A stretch of 61,864 nt of DNA, counting the filler, from Hausera hauseri (lineage: Eukaryota): NCBI GenBank assembly GCA_046269625.1. It is 11 parts of 11 records of this genome, joined end to end, with 100 filler letters (N's around TTAATTAATTAA, not from the genome) between each part and the next. Parts side by side here need not be neighbours in the genome. Positions count along the whole stretch, not along the records: positions 23,456 to 30,794 come from JBJURY010021119.1; 10 more parts are not named here. The stretch is one strand, 5' to 3'. Below, in pieces: positions 24,620 through 38,284 of the stretch. The position numbers and the translations under genes are program-made. Below the pieces are notes generated by a model. It did no database searches, was not told the DNA's origin, and saw nothing but the letters and a program-made list of their open reading frames with translations. The first letter of the stretch is position 1; each line of letters starts with the position of its first letter.

Positions 24620-27600
24620 TTCAATGAAGTCGGGGTATCTTGACTGCACTCCTAGTGCAACTCGATACCGGTGCGACAGGGATTTGCTTTCGTATTGTCG
24701 TCCGTTCCGTTTCCGGAAGTACGGGCGTTGGGGTAATGTGTGTTTCAATTTGGACCGGTGTTGGGTCATATGCTACGGTAGTGTCCATGTTGAATGGATC
24801 AATTTTCTCATAGTTTTCTCGAAGCTTGTTTACTTCTGACATGTTGGGTGCGTCTCGTTGGATAGGACCTTCCGTATTGGAATCATGATAGCCGAACGCG
24901 GGTTTTACATTAGACAAGTGTAATATATGTTCGTCATCGTCGCGTAATATTTTGGCGTTGGGCTCAGTGATTTCTATGAGCTTGTAGGGGCCCGTGTCTT
25001 TGTTGTCTTTTAAGCCAGACAAAGGATGCATCTTGTAGGTTCTTGGGCATGATTGGCTTTTTGTGATTGTTGTAGAATGCAGGGTTCGTGTCTATTGACA
25101 GGAATTGCTCACGAGCTTTGTTGACAGCAGGAATGGAAGTTACTTCCTCGTTGCTCACCAGATCTTGCGGGAATGTGAGGTGGGCACCAAATAATAGTTG
25201 TGCTGGAGAGGCATCAGTGCTAGTATTGGGCGTGTTTCTTCACCATAATAGCGCAATGGGTAATGCATCCAGCCAGTTCTTGTTATCGTGGCATGGGATT
25301 CGTAAGGATGATTTGAGAGTACGATGATATCGTTCAATCAAGCAATTCTCCTGCGGGTGATAGGGTGATGTGTATAAGTGCTTTGGACCAAGCGATTTGA
25401 TTAATTGTTTAAACATGGCTGATTTAAATTGGGTACCTTGATCTGTTATAATGTTTTTAGGTACTCCAAACCGAGAAATTTATGTATTTAGCAACACAGC
25501 CACAACGCTTTGCGTTGTTATTTGGCGGATTGGAATGGCTTCGGGCCATCTTTTTTTCCGGTTGAGAATGGTTAGGATGTGCTGATATTTGCTACATTCG
25601 GGAAGTGGTCCTACTATGTCCATGTGGATGGTTTCAAACCGTGAGCCAGTAGGATAATGTAGGATTGGTTGTTGTATAATCTTGTTAATTTTATACTGTT
25701 GGCAAAGTAAACATTCTTTTGTCCACTGCTTTATGTCGCTTAGCATGCGAGGCCAACAAACTCTGTTACTTAATAGGCGAGCTGTGGCTTGGTGTGTGAA
25801 TGGTGTCAAGCGCCTGTTTCCGTAGGTTTTCTGCCAGAATTGGGCGTGGACAACCATTGAGGATAGTGTTGTAGTGTATTCTATCTTTTGTGTCGACTGT
25901 TTTGACGAACGTAACATCATCTTCATGTGGAGGGTTCGATCGTAGAACCTCTTCCGTGAAAATTGGGTCAAAGGATATTGTCGATATCCAAGTTCTGGAA
26001 AAGAAATCAGCAACTGTTATCTTTTCCAGTTATGTGTTCTATCTGAAATAAGAATTCCGACAGAAATGAGATGTGTCGTTCTCGACGAGATGATGGGTTT
26101 TTAATACTCATCATGTGTATGAGTGGTTTGTAATCCGTGCAAATTGTGAATACATTTCATTCGAGGAAATGTCTCAAGTGTTTGACACTGAGAATTATGG
26201 CTAGTAATTCTTGGTCGAACGTTGAGTAGCTTTGCTTAGCTGAACTGAATTTGTGGGAAAAGAATTCAATGGGAGCATTTTTTCCATCTCTTGACTGGGA
26301 AAGGATGGCGCCTGCAGCGATGGTGGATGCATCTGTTGTTAAGATGAACCTTGCACCTCGTTTAGGATAGTGTAGTGTAGGTATGTGAAGAAGCGCCGTT
26401 TTTGCATTGGCAAATACCTGTTAAGCTTCATCTCTCCAATTTATCTGGGATTTCTTGGGTCCTTGGCTTAGAGCAGATAGAGATAACAGGATTTCCGAGC
26501 AGTGCGGAATGTAGCGATGGCAGAAATTGATCGTGCCAAGGAAGCTGCGAAGTTTAGTCACTGTGGATGGCTTCGGTATTTGTTTGATGGTCTTTAGTCG
26601 CTTAGGAAGAGGACTGTGGCCATGTGGTGTTAACCGAAGTCCGCGAAATATGGCCTCAGTTTTAAAGAATGAACATTTGTTTATGTTCACCTGTAGGTTG
26701 TTTTCATTCAACCTATGAAACACATGTTCGAGGTGTATTTTGTGAGTCGCTTCATCGGGTGATGCAATTAATATGTCATCTATATATGGGATTACATAAG
26801 CCTTTTCGATGAGGACTTGGTCTATGTGGCATTGGAATGTTGGACTTGCATTCCTTAAGCCGAAAGGCACGCGTAGATACTCGAACAAACCAAAAGGCGT
26901 TATTACGGCCGTTTTTGGAATGTCTTTAGTAGCCACTTGGATCAGATGGTATGCCCTTTCCAGATCGATTGTGCTGAAGATTGCGGCACCATGCAGGTGA
27001 TACAATTTGTCGGTTACCAACGGTTTTGGGTATGAATCGTGGATAGTGACGATATTTAACATTCTGTAGTCACCACAAGGCCGGTATGATCCGTCCTTTT
27101 TGTGAACCATGTGCAATATTGATGCCCACGGTGATGTGGAGCGGTGTATGATGCCTGTTTTTTCCAGGTGTCGGAATTCGGCTTCCGCGGCTGCTGTATT
27201 GACAGGGTCAAGCTCCCTCCGGGGTTGCCGAATCGATCGATCACATGATGTGACGAGAAAGTGTGATGTTTTCACCTCTTTCTGTGTTGGTTGTGTTGAG
27301 CGTTTCAACTAGTTAGGGTATTACGCTTGGAGCAATGGTGCGATATCAATGGGATTTGCGATTTTTATACTTGTGACTGCGTTTATAGTTAGTGTGAATG
27401 CGGGTGGAGGTAATAGATTGCTCCCGTTAGTGAGTTTTTGATTTCGGCAATCAATTCTGAGATCGTAGTGATCTAGGAAGTCAAAACCAAGGATTGGTTA
27501 CATGACATCGGCCAATATGAATGACCAAGCGTATGGTCGGCCTTGTAGATAAAATTGCAGGTACAGTGTACCTGTGGTTGATATTCGCGTGCCATTGGCA

Positions 27601-29180
27601 GCTTTGAGCGTTGCATGCGAGACGAGCGTAGGTCTAGCGTATGCGCTAGGTATCAGCGATAAAGCTTCACCAGTGTCGATTAGAAAATCGAGTTGTTTTG
27701 AGATATCAGAGTGTAGTGGCTCCGCCTCGAGAGTGAAAATAGCATTGAAAATGCGTTCGCTATTTGTACACGGCAGTTGTGGTGATTGAGTTTCCAGTCG
27801 ACGTGCCTTTGGTCGTCTGGGCCTATTTAGTTTTTTGATGACTTGTGAAATTTGCAGCCGGCTCGACAGATTTTTGCATCTTGATAGAAATGATTGTGAT
27901 AAGTGCAAGTGTCTTGCATTTTTATATTTGCGGGTGGCTTGTCGAATTGACAACCATGGTAACATTTGTAGGCGGATTTGCCAAATCGTGTATGGAAATG
28001 GCAAATTTTGGAAAATTTGCCTTTCTTTCTCTTGGATGATTGGCGCCGAGATGCCGGTTTGTCTCTGGCTAGCGGATTCTTGTGCGTTACGAGTGCCTGC
28101 AGTGCGGCAATAATTGTGTCCAGCTAACTTTTCTGGGTCGCTGTGACGGAGTTGATGTTTTCCGTCAGTGCGGATTCTTCGGTGCCTTTAGTGCTCTCAT
28201 ATTTTGTCGGCTTTTGATGCCATATCGTACAATGTCGTGTCGGGCGGTAATAGCACAAGGGCCGCTTGAATTTGGTTTGGCAAACTACTCAGGAAGTAGC
28301 GCCGTAGTATGTGCTGGTTACTGTGGAGGTCCAACTCAGCATTGCTCAAGTCTGAGCGTAAATTTTGAAGCAGAGCAGAAGGTTTTATATTCCCTGTCTG
28401 TCGCTTGGTAAAAACCAGATTGAATTGGTCTTGTTGGGATGGCAGATATGCTTTGTATATGGCTGCTTTGATTTTGTCAAACGGCTTTTCATCCGACAGT
28501 AACGTGTCCAGATCCGTTATTGCTGCAAACGTTGTTGGCTGTAGGTATTGTATTAATTTTAAGGCCTTGTTTAGTTGGCACGTGATGTTGTATTGAATAG
28601 CCCATGTTTCGAACACGAACCACTTCAATGGAGTTCTGTCCGAACCTATGAAGAAGGTGGAACACGCTAATTTGGGAGGTTTGGCCTGTGCTGATGATGC
28701 AGTTTCGGCTTTTTTGTCGGGTGTAATCGTGTCATTTTCTCATTTCATTTTAGGTGTTGCGAGCAGTGTCTCATTGTGTGTTTGGAAATAGTCCGAAATG
28801 GGATTATTCCATGGCCTCAAGATGTTTGCATTATGTGAGAAATAGTGGTCCGGATAGGAGCTCGCGAGTTGTTGTGGCATCGCCTTCACTGACATAGTAG
28901 ACGAGAAACGATATGCTGTCGTGTTGTGTAGGCCACGCACAAGAAGCTGGATTTCTCGCGGTGTCGTCGTTTTACCGGATTTGTGCGTCGAGTTAGTGTT
29001 ATCATTGTGCGTGTTAGTGCTAGTATAGTTTAGCACTTGTTCAGAATCGCTCATTGTGATTTTCTTGTTGGCGGTCTATGGTTAGCGGGTATTTTGTCAT
29101 CACGTTTAGTGATGTGGGTATTTGCGGTCGGATTGTTTTCGACGGCATTAATGAGTGTATTTACCGGATTAATTTCCATG
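24620..29180 (-). mobile_element. Ty3/gypsy LTR retrotransposon copy B (decayed) with UBL-Gag
   Basis: Gag (NIKPSALLQNL..LRRYFLSSLP), two CxxH..C..C knuckles, protease FLIDTGEALS, RT YRPCGDYR..YIDDIL, RNase H, integrase HMDIVGPLP. Confidence 0.95.
28737..28952 (-). other. Ubiquitin-like domain in frame with Gag (copy B)
   Basis: IQLLVRGLHNTTAYRFSSTMSVKAM..DHYFSHNANILRPWNNPISDYFQTHNETLLATPKMK*E. The single TGA at 28740-28742 is followed in frame by Gag (ORF 28197-28628). Confidence 0.65.
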
Positions 29181-29309
29181 GTGTTTCTGTAAGTTTGAGC
29201 CGGATTACTATCAGCGGTTGTTTTTCAAAATGCCCGGACCAGTATGTACGGTTCTGTGCGAAAGGGACGTGTGTGCGGTATTCGCTGCCATCATTTTAGA
29301 GTAATTAGA

Positions 29310-30190
29310 TCATATAAAACGGTCGAATAAAATCATAGGATACAACGCAAAACAAAAAATAAAGAACAAGTAAGATTTAAAACATTTATTTTGTTCCACC
29401 ATTGGTTCGTCAGCCGAGGCGCATGATGCGTCCGTCGACGATAGTGCCGGATCAGTTTGGAGATTTCGACGTGTGCAAGTCGGAGCGTTGTCCGAGCTTG
29501 AATCCAACGGCGCGGGTTTCCTTCGTGCCTCGTCAGAACGGCGCCTGAGACGCAGGTTCGGTAAGTCGTCTGGGCTCGACATCTTAACCTGCCGTTGTTC
29601 GGAGTGTCGGTGTACCGGGATCAGCTGGCTCTCCAAAAGAGCTAATGATTCGTAGAGGCGGTCGGTTGCCATCATCAATCTCAAAAAGACCGGAAGGAAA
29701 ACCGGCGAGTCAAAGAGACGTCGATTCTCCCCATCCTCGTAGAACCGATGGAATGTTCCCACGAGTAAACAGTACGGGTCATCTCGCCCCAACTTTACTA
29801 GGTATCGTATGAAGCGGCTCCATTGCAATAGCTCCCGTATCGTCAGAAAGTCCGAGTAGGACCGATACGGCCTTGATTGTCGTTGTTGCGGCGTCGTTTT
29901 CTGCGGGAGGCGGCGTCTCGCCGGGTCGGGCATGGCTGCTCTGGCTCAAGAGTTGAGATTGGACTGTTATCCGGGTCTTGTGTTCTCGCCAGTTTTGGTT
30001 GGGATTCTTTTGGGATCCGGTGTTCTGATGTCAAATTAATAACTTTGTTGACTTCCGGTTTCGAAGTGATTGCCACACCTGGTTTCCGGGTGATAGGTTC
30101 ACCGATTTTCGGTTTGACGTGAGGCGGCACAGACATAAATGACTTCTCCGTCGTGCGACCCTTTCCAACTGTATTCGACGTTTCCGACAT
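29310..30190 (-). CDS. Orphan Pro/Arg-rich gene (two overlapping ORFs, probably one frameshifted gene)
   Basis: ORFs 29843-30190 and 29310-29933 form a GC-richer island with an ATG after an AT-rich promoter-like region and AATAAA near 29385. No family recognised. Confidence 0.35.
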
Positions 30191-30894: not shown

Positions 30895-31524
30895 GCAATG
30901 ATGATGAAATTATTCAAGTTAGTGACGCAAATTTAGTTAGTGACACAATTGTGCAGCTGGATGGGGAAAGTTATCAGGTTATTACCGATGATAGTGGCCA
31001 AACGTATTTGGCTCCCGTTAGTCAGACAAATGTTTCATCGAATATTGCCGTTTCTCAAAACCTTGATAGCAATGGAATAACATATCGTTGTCCATCTTGT
31101 CCGCAGTCGTATCAAAACGCTAATGCGTTCACGAAACATATGCGTGAAAAGCATTTCGTCAATGTCTACACTTGTCGTCAGTGTGAGCCATTCCATGAAA
31201 CACTGGGTCAATTATTTTTACATGCACGACGAACTCATGTCGATCCAAAAAAACCGAAAAAGAATCCGGGAAATTTCAAATTCTATTGTCCTGGTTGTAA
31301 TTATATGACGAATAATGGCGGAACAATGGAACATCACAGGCAGGCCCATACGGATGTGAAACCGTTTTCTTGTGATATCTGTGGAAAACATTTTGCTCAG
31401 AAAGCCAACATGAAAACTCAAAAATCGTCACATTCATAAAGATCGAATTTCCCGTTGTGAAACGTGTGGGAAAGCGTTTAATTCGTACGATATTTATTTT
31501 ACACATTTGCGAACGAGAGAACAT
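30895..31524 (+). pseudogene. Multi-C2H2 zinc-finger protein (frameshifted)
   Basis: CPSC..HMREKH, CRQC..HARRTH, CPGC..HRQAH-TDVKPFS-CDICGKHF, then after a 1-nt shift near 31437, CETCGKAFNSYDIYFTHLRTREH. Confidence 0.8.
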
Positions 31525-33944
31525 GAATTATGGGAAATATTTAGTTATGGCCAATCTTCAATGAATATTTCTATTGAGGAATCAATGAGAAGCCAAGAGA
31601 ATTCTAAAATTTCCCGTCTTCCGGCACCAGATATATGTTCAAATGTTATATTTGGTGTTATTCGATCATGTTGGGCAGATCAGCCGTCATCCATACCGTC
31701 GTTCAACGATATATCAAATCACTTAGAAGGACCGCAACCTGAAGAGCTTGTTGCGTTATGTGATGGACCGGATAACATTCCTTGTCATCGAACTGATGAT
31801 ACTAACGAACACAGTGATGGGTTTTATTCGCCTTTAGGCAAAATGCCGATATTGCGTTATAATAAAGATGACACTGTGATTATTTTAGATAGGCATATGA
31901 GTCAGTATAAAGACTTTTGGAGAGGATGTTTATTGAATAGCGACTCTGGATTGTTCAAATGGGAAAATATGCGTATATTTAGTAGAAATCAAAGCTCTAA
32001 TAATAGTCTTCAGGAAAAGTCAAAAACTTTAACAAATTGCTACGGTCCCTTCCATCTACAAACAATTCTAACCGAACGAAAAGTGTTGAAGATGCATTTT
32101 CAAAACTGCGCATAAGCAGACAAGAATCAGATCGTAAAGCAAAACCCAGTAGACTATCTGCGGATATGATAAGTCCCCCAATCGGTGATTTTCGGCATGT
32201 TGGTTATGTCGGTTGTAACGGTGAGGCGTTCGGTGATGTTACACCCTTATACACCATTATTGCTCAACAGAATATAAAATCCGGTGTTTTATCAATAAAT
32301 TCGAAATTAGATTCATCAACGTGCTTATCAGAAACTGGTAGTATCAGATCTTCGTCAACTTTGAATACAGCCGGTGATGATACCCCACCTTATGCAACAA
32401 TAGATAATGAACCATGGAAATCGCAATTGAATTCTTTAGAAAAATGCAACAAATTTTCGAAATCTGCTTATAAAGACGATAATTTGTTTATTTCACTACC
32501 ATTGCCACCGGTACGGAGTAATAGTTCAGATGATGATAAATGCATATCGAAATCACTTGATGATGTCATGTCAACTCAGTTTAATACTTGCAATAGTGAT
32601 TTTTCTTTGTTTGATGAACTTTTCCAAGCATGGGATTCTCAATCATTTAAATTGCATTCCTTTGATTCAGTTTCAGTGACAAAAGATTCGTTACCAATCT
32701 GTGAAAAACAGTCGAACATCGAAAAACGTTCAAAGCATTCAATCCTAGGCAATCCATACGCACACAATGAATATACACCAGCATCAAAGATATCATTAGA
32801 TTTTATAACTAGTTCTTTCAATAACAGTAATGCCTCCTTGTACGTCTCATCATCCTCTAGCGATACTCACGTTTCACAAGCATCGAACATTCGCAGTTCT
32901 ACATTTACATGTCAGTCTCCGACAACGGTTACAAAAATAACAAAACCGATTACGACTCCGACAAAATCCACCGGTTTTCTTAGTAAATTCAAATCGTTAG
33001 GCACAAATAAAACACCGAAAATTAAAGAAGACAAAAAATCCGAATCTCCAATCTATGCAAAAACCACTAAGTCGAACAAAACCAAGAAGCAAACTGATCA
33101 GTCAAATGCCAAGAAAAATAGTATCAGCAGTCCAGTCCTCATATCAGCTCCAATAATTACCGCAGAATCTGTTAATAATGAAGATTGCTTTCTCGATTGT
33201 TCCTCTGAAGATTCTAGTCTTCAACCGAGTCCTCGAGATTCATTAATATGCTTAACAACGGTGTCATATAATCCTTCCTTGTTGCAAAGTGACAACAGCA
33301 TGTATTACAGCAGACAGAACAGCAATATGACATGTGGTTCCAGAGACAAAAATAGTGATTCAGCAACAACTGTACCTCCTGCATTACCTTTTGCATCTTT
33401 GACGTCAGTTGCAAGTACAAATGTGCTTCAGGGTGGTGCTGCTTTGAGAGCTCTTAGAAAAGGTGATGGAGTGTTTAGAGCACCATCTACTGTCAATGTA
33501 ATGGGGCGTAAAAGGTCTTCGACTAGTGGCCAGAATGACCAAAATTTACTGCAAGGCACCTCGTCAAGGAATCGTTTGCCACTATTTCCAACAGCCTTCA
33601 GAGGCGTTTGATTGCAGTCGTCAACTGTGGATCGCAGATTATCTCAGCTAAGAGTAAATCACGGTAGTGAACAGTTAGAACCTGTTTTAGATACATTTAA
33701 TCGGCTTATGGCATTAGCTGACAAGACAATCGGCATTGAATCAAAAAAGCAAGTTAAATTGGAGTCATCGAGCGGTCTTGGTTGTGGCGTGGGAGTTTGG
33801 CGCAAAGACGAAACAATTTTGCGAGATGAAAAAAATCTCAGTGTTGTCGAAACACCAAAGGATGATGTGCAGCTCCATTCTCCAAAACTGGCAAATCTGA
33901 ACGAAACGTATTTGAAATACTTGTCCAATTATGGTGAATATTAG
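31525..33944 (+). pseudogene. TNK2: ACK-family non-receptor tyrosine kinase, C-terminal part (kinase end-SH3-CRIB-low complexity tail)
   Basis: LWEIFSYG..RLPAPDICS..SCWADQPSSIPSF (kinase subdomains IX-XI), SH3-like LRYNKDDTVIILD..FWRG..GLF, CRIB MISPPIGDFRHVGYVG..FGDV. This domain order is diagnostic of the ACK family. Frameshift near 32040 and in-frame TGA at 33609-33611. Confidence 0.78.
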
Positions 33945-34017: not shown

Positions 34018-35691
34018 TTGGACACCTTTTATAGCCTTACAGTCTCTACTTTATCCGCTCCAGATACTTATGTGCGACTGCCCAATAAAGCTGATGAACC
34101 CAGATTCATTAAACGCAGTAAAACAAGTAAGAATTCGGCCACCCTGCATTTGGGGCCCGTCGTACCGGGGTGGAAGTTACGACCGTCAACCCTGCGCCGG
34201 TAGGTCGGACGGCGCTTTTCGCGTCAGCTTTACATCACGCCCCCAGGCACACCACTTTTCCCCCTCTATTTTCTTTCTCAATAATACACATTTACACCCT
34301 CACTACATCACATCCACACATTCCCACCTTTCGGACCTCCATTTCCTCTTTACTTAACTCTTCCGAAATTTATCTCACCCATAACGGCCCTATCATACCT
34401 CTCACCGGAACCCTACCATCTTTCTCAAGCCACATTTGCCTCCACATGCATCTCCATAATCGTGATGGCATGAACTCTTCGCCAACCCTTGACACCACAA
34501 ATAAAACCACCATAAATCCAATACCTGTAATATTACTCCAAAAACCCACTCTTAACTCTGCTAGCAACCTCACAGCCACTACCTCTTCATCTCCTTTACC
34601 TAACTGCACCGAGTTTTTCTTTGCCAACCAAGGCTCTAGCAAAACTTGGTTGCTATTCCATCAGCTATAGCTACAGGCAAATAACGTCACTGACTCCCTA
34701 ACAGAGGCACATAACCTTTTTTTCTTTCTCCCTAATAACATCAAGAACCGCATTCACAACATCATCGAAATCTCTCAACTTCCAGACCCATATTCCCAAC
34801 TTTCTAACGCAGTCCTAAAGATCACGGAACCTTCCATGGACACGATCATCCAGCGTTTCTTCCACGACAACGTTATAGGCATCCAACGGCCATCAGAATT
34901 CTTACGTACATCCTTAGCGCATCTACATACTCTTGGATTCACTAAAGAGCACAACCCAGAACTACTGCGCCACTATTTCCTTAATGCGCTACCTATCCAA
35001 ATCCGGGCTTTACTTACCGTTGTGGGGGACTCCACGCCATTTGAGAAATTGGCCGAATTAGCCAATAGGACATACGATGTCCTACACGTAAATTCTTCAC
35101 CAGTAGTTTTAGCATCAGTTGCAGCTAGCGATAATATATCCATAGAACAACAACTTAATCAGCTACGTATTGAAAACATGCAACAATAAACAACATCAAC
35201 ATTAAATTAAACGAATTGTCTCTGTCCCGCTAAGGGGGTTTTGCCGCTGACCGCGCCCATTCTGTGTCTAGAAACCGCTCACCATCGCCTGTGCATTCGT
35301 CGATCTGCTATTACCACAGCAGATTTAATAATAAGGCTCAGAAGTGCTGCCTAGGGTGCAAATTTTATAACAAAAATTTTTCCTCAGAAACTGTTGTTTG
35401 CATTTACCATGCAAGGTTCAAAAACCAAGCTCGTAAATGTATTCCAGGCTGCACTTTCCAATCCAACACGAACAACGGACGTACTGCCTTTCCTTTTAAT
35501 AGTCGTCCTAATTTACCCTTTCAAAAAAACTAAGTTCGCCGCCAGAAGTCACGGCAACCTCTGGCAAAGGCACTATTTCACTTTCTGAACGCCGACACGT
35601 CTCTTTTGCTGTCCTTACTCTAAAGGCTGCAAACACTGCTCCTACAACGCAATCTGTTGACTTCCTCATTGATATAGGTGCAGCGATTTCT
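34018..35691 (+). mobile_element. Ty3/gypsy copy C, 5' part (UBL-Gag, frameshift site, protease start)
   Basis: CTEFFFANQGSSKTWLLFHQL, QRPSEFLRT..LLRHYFLNALP, two CxYH..C..C knuckles, AAAAAAC-TAA, then VDFLIDIGAAIS at the contig end. Confidence 0.9.
34260..34469 (+). other. Ubiquitin-like domain before Gag (copy C, degenerate)
   Basis: ..EIYLTHNGPIIPLTGTLPSFSSHICLHMHLHNRDG|M aligns with copy D NFYLTHNGFIL..HLCIHVNLRVRGG|M. Confidence 0.6.
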
Positions 35692-35957: not shown

Positions 35958-36426
35958 TCATAAACGTCGCGTCGGTAAAAATGTCAGTGTTTGATATGTG
36001 GGCTTTAATTGTCGTTTTTGTATTCCATTAGTCATTCGCGCCTGTCGCTTTAATGTAGGCTCTACTAATTGTTTGACAGGTTCTATTCCTGGTTCAATAC
36101 AGTTGACATTAGAATTGTTGTCACCAAGCACTCGTAACAAATCGGAACTCTCGTGATCATCATCACCATTGAGTATTATCGCTCTATCTTCGTCTGACAT
36201 GCGTTTACCAGAAATAATTCTCCCTTACCGTTTTAATATCGGTTTTACGAATTCCTGGACAGATTTCGGTTCTAGACAATTGACATTGTCCTTCTTGTAA
36301 CCAAACAGCCATGACCAATCTGTACTTTCGTCATTGTCAGAAGTATTATTGAGCAGAATCGTTTTGTCGTCGTTTTCCATCGTATTAATGTCTGAAAGAA
36401 TATGAGAATGATATTTATAGTCCATT
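35958..36426 (-). pseudogene. Polinton cargo protein with an internal ~60-aa tandem repeat
   Basis: MENDDKTILLN..NVNCLEP..VKPILKR*GRIISG and MSDEDRAIILN..NVNCIEP..VEPTLKRQARMTNG are in the same frame, separated by one TAA (probably from CAA). Confidence 0.55.
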
Positions 36427-36439
36427 GGCCAGAGTATAT

Positions 36440-36904
36440 TACTTTGATTTAGTGAAACATTAATGTGGTGTTTAATTTGATTAACAGTCGTCTCATAGTT
36501 GATTGACGGAATTCCCAATACGACAATTTTTCCTCTGCTAAACAAATTGGCACAAAGCGGGCGGAATAGTGTTAGTCGCAGTGCAGGAAACAGTTCGGGC
36601 TCATAGATGCATTGGGTAACCATTAATAATTTGTGCAGATCAATTAATGGTGGTGGTGGTAGTGAGAAATCTAAGTCAGTCGTTACCGTTATTGATTGAA
36701 TTTGGTCAATGACAATTTCGAATGGTAGATGTCATTTGTGACTGGTTTGCGACAACCCATAATACAACACTTTCCCGATGGAAATATGATGCGTGTAATA
36801 TCTAGTGGACATTTGTGGACATACTGCCTTGGTTTCCATTAATTAAATGGCAATGCATTAATACATTCGGTAACATATCCGCTGTAGTTGATATTGGCTA
36901 TCAT
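36440..36904 (-). pseudogene. Divergent TATA-binding-protein (TBP)-like gene
   Basis: Repeat 1: MIANINYSG..RIIFPSGKCCIMGCRK. Repeat 2: IQSITVTTDLDF..IDLHKL..CIYEPELFPALRLTLFRPLCANLFSRGKIVVLG, against canonical TBP YEPELFPGLIYRM..LIFVSGKIVLTG. One stop and one frameshift. Confidence 0.8.
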
Positions 36905-36960
36905 GATTGATCGAAACAGTGCTTATGCGGCACCTATTTATATATGTGATTATAAACAAA
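36905..36960. promoter_or_regulatory. Putative bidirectional promoter between the TBP-like gene and the ATPase
   Basis: 56 bp between divergent ATGs. TATATAAATAG on the minus strand (about 36934-36944) and TATAAA on the plus strand (36951-36956). Confidence 0.45.
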
Positions 36961-37599
36961 ATGTATGAGAAATGCATCACCAACGACATGAAGCTGCAGA
37001 ATAGTGACATTTTCCAGATTGTGGGCCCAGGTGGAAGTGGCAAAACACACTTTCTTTGAAAATTGCTGCAGAACCACCATGACATATTCCAAGCGCCGCT
37101 GTTCAATCACATTTACTGGCATCAGGGCGGTAGTGATTATGGGGAGTCCAGTTTGACATATCAAGCATTTTGTAAACTGAAATCGATAACGGTAATTGAT
37201 TGGTTTGATGAAAACTGGTCTGTACAATTAAGCAACGCTGACGTTATTGTTAATGACAATTTATTTCCAGAAGCAACAAAACAAACTGAATTCAAAAACC
37301 TGTTTGCGAAGATTGTACGGCACCGTGGCGTGGCAATTATTTTCATTACGCAAAATATGTTCCATCAGGGTGGACAGCATCGAACAAGAAATTTAAATGT
37401 ACGCTATTTGATTTTGTTCAAAAATTTCCGTGATCAGACTAGCATTGATTATGCTGCACGACAAGCATTTTCCCACAATCGAGCCTACTTGATAGAAGCA
37501 TATTATGATGCTACGAACAAACCGCATGGATATCTGTTTATTGACTTTATACAACAGTGTCCCGATGACATGCGTATACGAAAATACATTTTCAATTAG
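36961..37599 (+). pseudogene. A32-like/FtsK-HerA genome packaging ATPase (Polinton)
   Basis: Walker A IVGPGGSGKT, decayed Walker B VIVNDNL, RHRGVAIIFITQNMF..NLNVRYLILFKNFRD..KPHGYLFIDF. One in-frame TGA at 37057-37059. Confidence 0.9.
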
Positions 37600-37796
37600 A
37601 GAGGTGTATGTGTATATAAACAAATTCGAAAATCGACGATGATGAAAATGAAGAATTTCCGAAAAACGATTGTTAAACCTAAACCTACCAAACGGATGTC
37701 CAGCAAGAAAAGTGTATCAAAACGAACCGCTACAGTCAAGCGATAAATTAATTCTGTGCTTCGAACAACAACAACTAGACGCAAATTACCGTCAAA

Positions 37797-38186
37797 GTGG
37801 CAACGGTTAAAAACAACTACGTCTCATCAGCTTCAGTACATCCAAAAATGCGATTCAAACTTAGACAGTTATACTTTATTGCTTTGCTTAAGGCACCTAT
37901 GACACATAAGCGAAACATGCTTCGATCATTCCCGAGGTTTGTAGTAGACGATTTGGTGGAAATTTTATATAATATTGTTGTGGGTCACGTTGATATTGGT
38001 AGTGGAAAGCGGAATTTACTAATGTATCAAAAACGACTCATTGGCCTCACCAACACTTGTAGTAAACGGCTCAAGCGAGAGGTCATGTACCAGCAAGATG
38101 GCGGATTCCTTGGTGCAATTCTATCGTTTCTCACGTCATTACTGGATGGTCTCACCGGTACTGAAGCAGCACAGTATAAACAATGA
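37797..38186 (+). CDS. Conserved Polinton small protein with a QxGG|F amphipathic C-terminus (putative core/membrane-active virion protein)
   Basis: LVEILYNIVVGHVDI..QQDGGFLGAILSFLTSLL; GG|F resembles an adenain-type maturation site. Confidence 0.65.
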   Translation: MATVKNNYVSSASVHPKMRFKLRQLYFIALLKAPMTHKRNMLRSFPRFVVDDLVEILYNIVVGHVDIGSGKRNLLMYQKRLIGLTNTCSKRLKREVMYQQDGGFLGAILSFLTSLLDGLTGTEAAQYKQ

Positions 38187-38284
38187 CGGTGATCATATGG
38201 TAATTTGCTATATAGGTGCATGGTTTTTATCTTTTTGTCTCATTTTACCGAATCTTTCATTTACATTTCGTTAAAATTGTTGTA

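Follow-up and report, generated by a model that had tools for sequence, protein, structure and literature searches.

LTR elements normally rely on their own protease to process Gag, and where they have captured host domains, these are usually located in pol or in extra ORFs. A reading frame that passes from a ubiquitin-like domain directly into Gag raises the questions of whether the resemblance to ubiquitin is real, how old the fusion is, and what the domain does in front of Gag. Here we analyse such a frame in a window of 61,864 nucleotides (the whole stretch of DNA studied, filler included) from the Hausera hauseri assembly GCA_046269625.1. The window consists of short contigs joined by N44-TTAATTAATTAA-N44 spacers, so that neighbouring contigs are unlinked and may stem from more than one organism. 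The contig at 23456-30794 carries one gypsy element on the minus strand, referred to as copy B.

Results

The stretch is the 5′ part of the gag gene of a decayed Ty3/gypsy element on the minus strand, and the pieces in the window follow the Ty3/gypsy order of gag, then PR-RT-RH-IN (Table 1). Frame 29075-28197 (minus strand) was confirmed as initially translated, with a single stop (28740-28742) at the junction and no shift into a DUF7041-type Gag. Copy B is dead, with frame breaks in the leader, the stop at the junction, a break near 28200 and more in pol. Its gag terminates in an A-rich slippery-type site, and the same end motif is found in 8 of 8 loci checked. No LTR pair appeared in a self-comparison of copy B, and no 3′ LTR was found within the contig. 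The ATG at 29054, which the initial annotation took as the start, probably does not serve as one, because the relative P0004 lacks that Met and homology extends upstream to approximately 29369 across frame breaks; the domain is usually internal, behind a leader, and not N-terminal. Related copies from sequencing run X1 have an extra base near 29074 (833 of 885 depth units, 1 contig). The probable LTR region contains a stop-free frame of 211 aa (29310-29945, minus strand) that had no Pfam match.

Table 1. Positions of the features of copy B and of the other Gag-bearing copies in the window.
Feature	Positions	Strand	Evidence
Probable 5′ LTR, limits not fixed	29294..29700	-	Position upstream of the primer-binding site
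Primer-binding site, tRNA-Leu type	29283..29293	-	10 of 11 first bases identical to the mouse tRNA-Leu(AAG) probe of PMC7997516
Decayed leader with frame breaks and stops	28965..29369	-	Pieces match P0004 residues 104-225, in changing frames
Ubiquitin-like (beta-grasp) domain	28743..28964	-	Profile, fold model; 38% identity to the P0004 domain
Junction codons, with stop where the relatives' domain ends	28737..28742	-	Translation, X1 contigs, P0004
Linker and Gag capsid region (DUF7041-like)	28200..28736	-	Pfam E 0.0012, below cut-off; 83% identity to P0004
Gag C-terminus with two CHCC knuckles, after frame break	27827..28201	-	73% identity to P0004 525-648
Aspartic protease region	27498..27760	-	Weak Pfam gag-asp_proteas match, E 0.24; LIDTG motif
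Reverse transcriptase	26421..27308	-	RVT_1, E 7.8e-27
Integrase zinc-binding region, broken	25480..26016	-	Integrase_H2C2, E 5.3e-9
Copy A, Gag of the same branch; 5′ part lost at contig gap	5400..6221	+	Gag tree
Copy C, frameshifted ubiquitin-like domain before Gag	34287..34469	+	E 0.034; last 40 aa 11 bits
Copy D, intact ubiquitin-like domain and di-glycine, in frame with Gag	43506..43721	+	Profile 22.9 bits, E 2.9e-8, six-frame scan

Taken alone, the sequence of copy B is a borderline case of ubiquitin likeness. Its domain had no match in Pfam and a sole match in PDB, the di-ubiquitin-like domain of OASL (E 0.59); against the Atlas ubiquitin and Rad60-SLD clusters it scored 0.88, under the lead threshold, and AlphaFold predicted no fold from the single sequence (pTM 0.26). 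Scored with a profile built from 31 related domains, the domain of copy B reached 9.0-9.8 bits, a level attained by 1 and 0 of 1000 shuffles. The resemblance noted initially becomes firm because of the relatives, namely P0004, the profiles and an alignment-based model. P0004 is a natural relative (64% identity) that is open across the stop of copy B and whose domain ends in di-glycine; used alone as a PDB query, it found no ubiquitin. From 22 diverged members, none of which singly gives a match to Pfam ubiquitin at E<=0.01, a profile was built that recovers chains of ubiquitin, ubiquitin-S27a and ISG15, each at E 1e-6 to 3e-4. When AlphaFold was given a 34-row alignment, residues 1-70 were modelled at pLDDT 86-95 in beta-grasp order, the top Foldseek matches of the model being OASL, ISG15, FAT10 and ubiquitin; VIA-align of the model with ubiquitin-fold chains gave Z 10-10.8 and rmsd 1.5-2.2. 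Since this alignment contained two near-ubiquitin rows able to pull the model, the test was redone by profile without them. As modelled, the domain has the ubiquitin fold, and the profile of diverged members gave the same answer. The capsid half is helical in the model and was barely covered by the fold searches.

Ubiquitin proper, defined by a Pfam score above cut-off and the Ile44 patch, is found in P0072, P0107, L001, L003, L004 and L005 (68-86 bits; hereafter near-ubiquitin members) and neither in copy B nor in P0004. The C-terminal di-glycine is broken in copy B and present in P0004, copy D and 17 of 18 loci of relatives. In run X1, which contains a very large family of related copies, the position of the stop codon is occupied by sense codons in 17 contigs (199 of 225 depth units), and the codon after it is sense in 7 contigs (93 of 110 depth units). 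Open frames and a di-glycine had been expected in related copies; P0004 shows both, and most X1 contigs are open at the junction.

Copy B, with X at the stop, was searched against 1.84 billion representatives, which yielded 160 matches, 150 of which were listed. One of these, P0005, which ranked second by score, was excluded as a repeat protein that lacks Gag. Among the 149 Gag relatives in the matches listed, 32 carry a ubiquitin-type di-glycine tail 19-58 residues before the capsid core, as chosen by eye; P0025, P0045, P0052, P0056, P0074, P0078, P0111 and P0118 have Gly-Gly without such a tail and were not counted. Pfam ubiquitin matched 11 of the 47 proteins scanned, 3 of them above cut-off. 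Word-based protein searches with copies B and D found nothing (P0004 lies outside the length range searched), a scan of viral contigs returned 0 loci, and a metagenome scan with P0156 returned none. The 20 clusters and 9 further matches that were looked up all came from ENA, JGI or Logan assemblies.

In a quick Gag tree of 151 rows (P0002, P0062 and P0064 omitted as too short), which is unrooted and built on matches picked by likeness to copy B, the 32 tailed relatives, copies B and C, and 7 further rows make up one side of a branch (SH-aLRT 86); a full-search tree (LG+G4) with only 40 of the 108 other rows supported that branch at 100/98. The 7 further rows are all shortened: P0116 starts with the domain tail, P0039 is nearly a copy of P0016, the start of four others coincides with that of Gag or falls within it, and copy A runs into a contig gap. 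Copy B and P0004 form the deepest branch of the ubiquitin-Gag side (95/70). An independent character agrees with the single branch and thereby supports it: two CHCC knuckles are present in 28 of the 29 knuckle-bearing proteins of the ubiquitin-Gag branch, and one in 72 of 73 other matches, the exception being P0062, which is absent from the tree. The Gag of copy B is only distantly similar to that of copy C, as first described (25% identity over 168 aa). Judged from these sequences, the layout is clade-wide in a diverse group of gypsy elements and not local to the window.

Scanning with an alignment of one subclade gave 18 DNA loci (L001-L018). The domain, the di-glycine and the start of Gag share one frame in 15 of them, with leader, domain and Gag contiguous in DNA; L016 and L018 have the domain in broken frames, and L002 begins past the junction. 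In five loci the pol frame is open over 1092-1126 aa, and pol is intact with RVT_1, RNase H and integrase in L002 and L010. The overlap of pol with the A-rich gag end (34-88 nt in 8 of 8 loci checked) fits −1 frameshifting as a putative mode of expression. In 7 of 7 permuted contigs checked, the polypurine tract of the relatives is followed by 369-729 nt up to the primer site, and the primer sites of the group match the tRNA-Leu(CAA) and tRNA-Leu(AAG) probes printed in PMC7997516. In 8 of the 10 loci with a primer site, the gag frame can be read without a break to the domain from a point inside the LTR, 109-387 nt before that site; the leader is interrupted in L005 and L012. Of 15 loci, only one has Met at ubiquitin position 1, and L001, L007 and L015 have in-frame ATGs solely upstream of the primer site. 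The leader is approximately 20-35% identical between most families and too diverged for reliable dN/dS. Some database gene calls show host domains upstream of the ubiquitin-like domain: Rrp44 cold-shock and CNOT1 (P0007/P0154), histone H2A (P0018), SCC3 HEAT (P0036) and 5′-nucleotidase (P0040). Because they are known from gene calls alone, these may be gene-call chimeras.

Most domains are highly diverged, with a mutual identity near 15% (median pairwise identity 16%). Hydrophobic core positions 26/30/43/50/67 are kept in 97-100% of domains, and Ile44 is kept in 2 of 31, mostly Thr or Ser otherwise. In a set of 33 domains, Arg72 is present in 23, Leu73 in 26 and Arg74 in only 11; the di-glycine in 33/33 is a consequence of how the set was built. 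The residue following the di-glycine is small in 28/33 (35% in the linker) and Pro in 0/33 (10% in the linker), the rows of the set being related, so that p values are overstated. Pro after the di-glycine blocks cleavage.

Values of dN/dS were 0.16-0.50 for the domain (12 computable of 14 locus pairs) and 0.00-0.12 for Gag (10 computable of 14), with dS near saturation in most pairs and the pairs sharing branches and thus not independent. In the closest informative pairs, domain and Gag gave 0.48 vs 0.10 and 0.30 vs 0.03. Among the X1 differences listed inside the domain, 8 of 11 fall at third codon positions, and copy B and P0004 are 38% identical in the domain vs 83% in Gag. The sequence comparisons support purifying selection on the domain, relaxed relative to Gag. 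The initial proposal that the fusion is old and was retained under selection is supported by the single Gag-tree branch, the shared double CHCC knuckles and dN/dS <1 in all 12 computable pairs; it needs amending in that retention appears weaker on the domain than on Gag and that the domain was apparently replaced by fresh ubiquitin in some lineages.

Such replacement is suggested by the near-ubiquitin members. The P0107 domain is identical to ubiquitin at 57 of 75 positions, and P0072 and P0035 are 70% identical in Gag vs 20% in the domain. The positions of these members in the tree are deep, surrounded by diverged forms whose derived motifs also occur in outer branches; near-ubiquitin L005 is sister to the diverged L006/L009 on the Gag tree (95/98) and to L006 on the RT tree (98/98), which is without a usable outgroup. 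Keeping the Gag subclade together is compatible with the domain tree, which does not reject it (p-AU 0.33), and a single near-ubiquitin clade is likewise not rejected by the Gag tree (p-AU 0.25). Otherwise, the domain tracks Gag in that subclade (2 changes vs 7.3 in shuffles), with a Mantel rho of 0.15 (p 0.02) and no signal among distant pairs. Between L001:1491-1718 and L004:193-420, dS is 0.63 for the near-ubiquitin domain and 2.67 for Gag, a gap that is smaller in other pairs and is as expected if there had been a recent exchange or capture. The near-ubiquitin domains were probably re-captured; replacement of the domain by fresh host ubiquitin, followed by exchange between families, would be the simplest reading, short of proof. 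We asked whether near-ubiquitin copies lose lysines preferentially and discarded the idea: position 48 differs between P0107 and P0159, a member of the same cluster, and most lysines are retained in P0072.

Copies A, C and D lie on other contigs than copy B, and such reverse transcriptases as they have are 51-58% identical. The sequence upstream of copies C and D yielded no primer site, so it is not possible to assign the host pieces in that sequence to the interior of the element. One of these pieces is a decayed, intron-free DPAGT1-like stretch (42556-43300, plus strand), the last part of which (E 1e-4 to human DPAGT1 285-358) shares its reading frame with the domain and the Gag of copy D; it may be either leader cargo or a chance neighbour. 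Upstream of copy C lies an intron-poor mosaic (30897-33944, plus strand) with C2H2 zinc fingers, a piece of a kinase C-lobe and a weak CRIB match. Fragments at 36225-41824 resemble what we take to be ATPase, integrase and structural genes of the Polinton type. A long uninterrupted VCP/p97 frame (48490-50589, plus strand) had its best PDB match in 9ox9 (1339 bits vs 1319 for the next), an entry cited in a paper on Schistosoma mansoni p97 (PMC12415213), which points faintly to a flatworm.

Discussion

We consider it probable, on the sequence evidence, that host deubiquitinases cut after the di-glycine and free Gag from the leader, the domain serving as a processing signal. Translation would start upstream of the domain, near the 5′ end of the RNA and often inside the LTR, and the ribosome would pass through the primer-binding and packaging region, giving a poorly conserved, disposable leader. 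Cleavage behind the di-glycine by host deubiquitinases would then likely leave Gag with a defined N-terminus. The domain would have been captured once from host ubiquitin and kept as a folded cleavage signal rather than as signalling ubiquitin; it would evolve at several times the rate of Gag, and fresh ubiquitin would have taken its place on at least one occasion. This reading is favoured because the features that a C-terminal hydrolase reads are the conserved ones. Against it, host hydrolases usually read ubiquitin surfaces, and they may not recognise most of the domains because these are so diverged.

Engineered ubiquitin-Gag fusions have been built to send HIV Gag to the proteasome (PMC3914991), and a domain that stayed attached could likewise act as a ubiquitin mimic that routes Gag to ESCRT membranes or the proteasome and thereby governs the release of particles or the amount of Gag. 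All members retain the fold, and the diverged domains may escape hydrolases, two points in favour of such a mimic. However, receptors of ubiquitin bind the Ile44 patch, which is polar in most members, and the cleavable tail and the small next residue are kept, so we regard permanent attachment as unlikely. Were the domain itself the active product after release, conjugated by the host ubiquitin system or jamming it as a counter-defence, cleavage would leave it the free di-glycine end, and its fast-evolving surface (38% vs 83% for Gag between copy B and P0004) would be as in host conflict. Yet residues 42, 44 and 70, which E1/E2 enzymes use in ubiquitin, are mostly replaced, and dN/dS of the domain exceeds 1 in no pair. 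The planarian Burro elements, which bear several ubiquitination-linked domains according to the portions of PMC6431247 that describe them, lend such a released modifier some plausibility; with the replaced residues counted in, it is nevertheless quite improbable.

The junction might also be cut by the aspartic protease that the elements themselves encode, the domain being only a folding or solubility partner. Ubiquitin fusions do raise protein yield, but the Arg-Leu-x-Gly-Gly tail kept across the branch is the signature of host hydrolases and not a retropepsin site, which makes a cut by the element's own enzyme a poor candidate. It is very hard to believe that the domain is a neutral leftover, or that gene calling has joined host ubiquitin genes to nearby Gag: many database proteins do have odd N-terminal extensions, some with host domains, but the DNA is contiguous in 15 of 18 loci and in copy D of the window, the position of the junction is fixed, dN/dS is <1, and pol is open over 1092-1126 aa in five loci.

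Processing by host deubiquitinases, if it occurs, would free Gag whatever lies upstream, so that the leader could be translated from inside the LTR and may carry host gene fragments. A wider scenario, which we put forward as a tentative and rather doubtful one, is that the clade has outsourced Gag maturation to host deubiquitinases, renews its ubiquitin from host mRNA, and has a leader translated from the LTR and able to carry host fragments. Candidate leader cargo consists of DPAGT1, in frame in copy D, and of DIS3L, CNOT1, NT5C and SCC3 pieces upstream in database relatives.

In cells, UBA52, RPS27A and FAU join a ubiquitin or ubiquitin-like domain through di-glycine to a cargo that hydrolases release. 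The ubiquitin-Gag layout resembles these fusions, and chains of this type are among the matches of the diverged-member profile; these cellular genes, however, begin with the domain itself and have no leader. A captured in-frame ubiquitin upstream of a polyprotein product is also known from cytopathic pestiviruses (BVDV Osloss, CP1, CP Rit), where, in the account given in PMC8310069, cellular hydrolases cutting the ubiquitin generate the N-terminus of NS3. What is demonstrated there is conjectured here, and the pestivirus ubiquitin is described in that account as sporadic, recent and near-identical to that of the host, whereas in the ubiquitin-Gag elements the domain is a constant feature of a deep clade, has diverged in most members and stands before a structural protein. 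The giant planarian gypsy element Burro/GYPSM1 has a ubiquitin-fold (PF11976, SUMO-like) domain in its polyprotein as well, but it is internal and downstream of a CCHC Gag in a 4,873-aa ORF, and the description in the relevant part of PMC6431247 includes no di-glycine junction before Gag.

Among gypsy elements, the group is closest in character to the CsRn1 clade (CsRn1, PwRn1, AgCR), with which it shares, as far as the clade is characterised in the corresponding sections of PMC2582038, the CX2HX9CX3C (CHCC) knuckle, the helical DUF7041-type capsid, the PR-RT-RH-IN order and, in some members, the gag/pol overlap. It differs in that the single CHCC knuckle of the clade is doubled, the primer site is of the tRNA-Leu type where that of the clade is tRNA-Trp, and a ubiquitin-like domain and leader precede Gag. 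Because its primer site is not of the tRNA-Trp type, we class the group as a CsRn1-like gypsy lineage and not as a member of that clade. A literature search confined to open papers returned no account of gypsy elements with a ubiquitin-Gag fusion, so a prior mention in subscription papers or supplements, or in Repbase, Dfam or GyDB, is possible; the main text of PMC3248453 does not mention ubiquitin. The group is apparently undescribed. Pfam misses the domain in most members, so that it would escape annotation.

A deep clade with ubiquitin fixed before Gag would be a natural, long-running version of the strategy used sporadically by pestiviruses. Its members span a range from approximately 75% ubiquitin identity to the limit of detection, and such a set would allow a direct test of how much drift is still compatible with cleavage.
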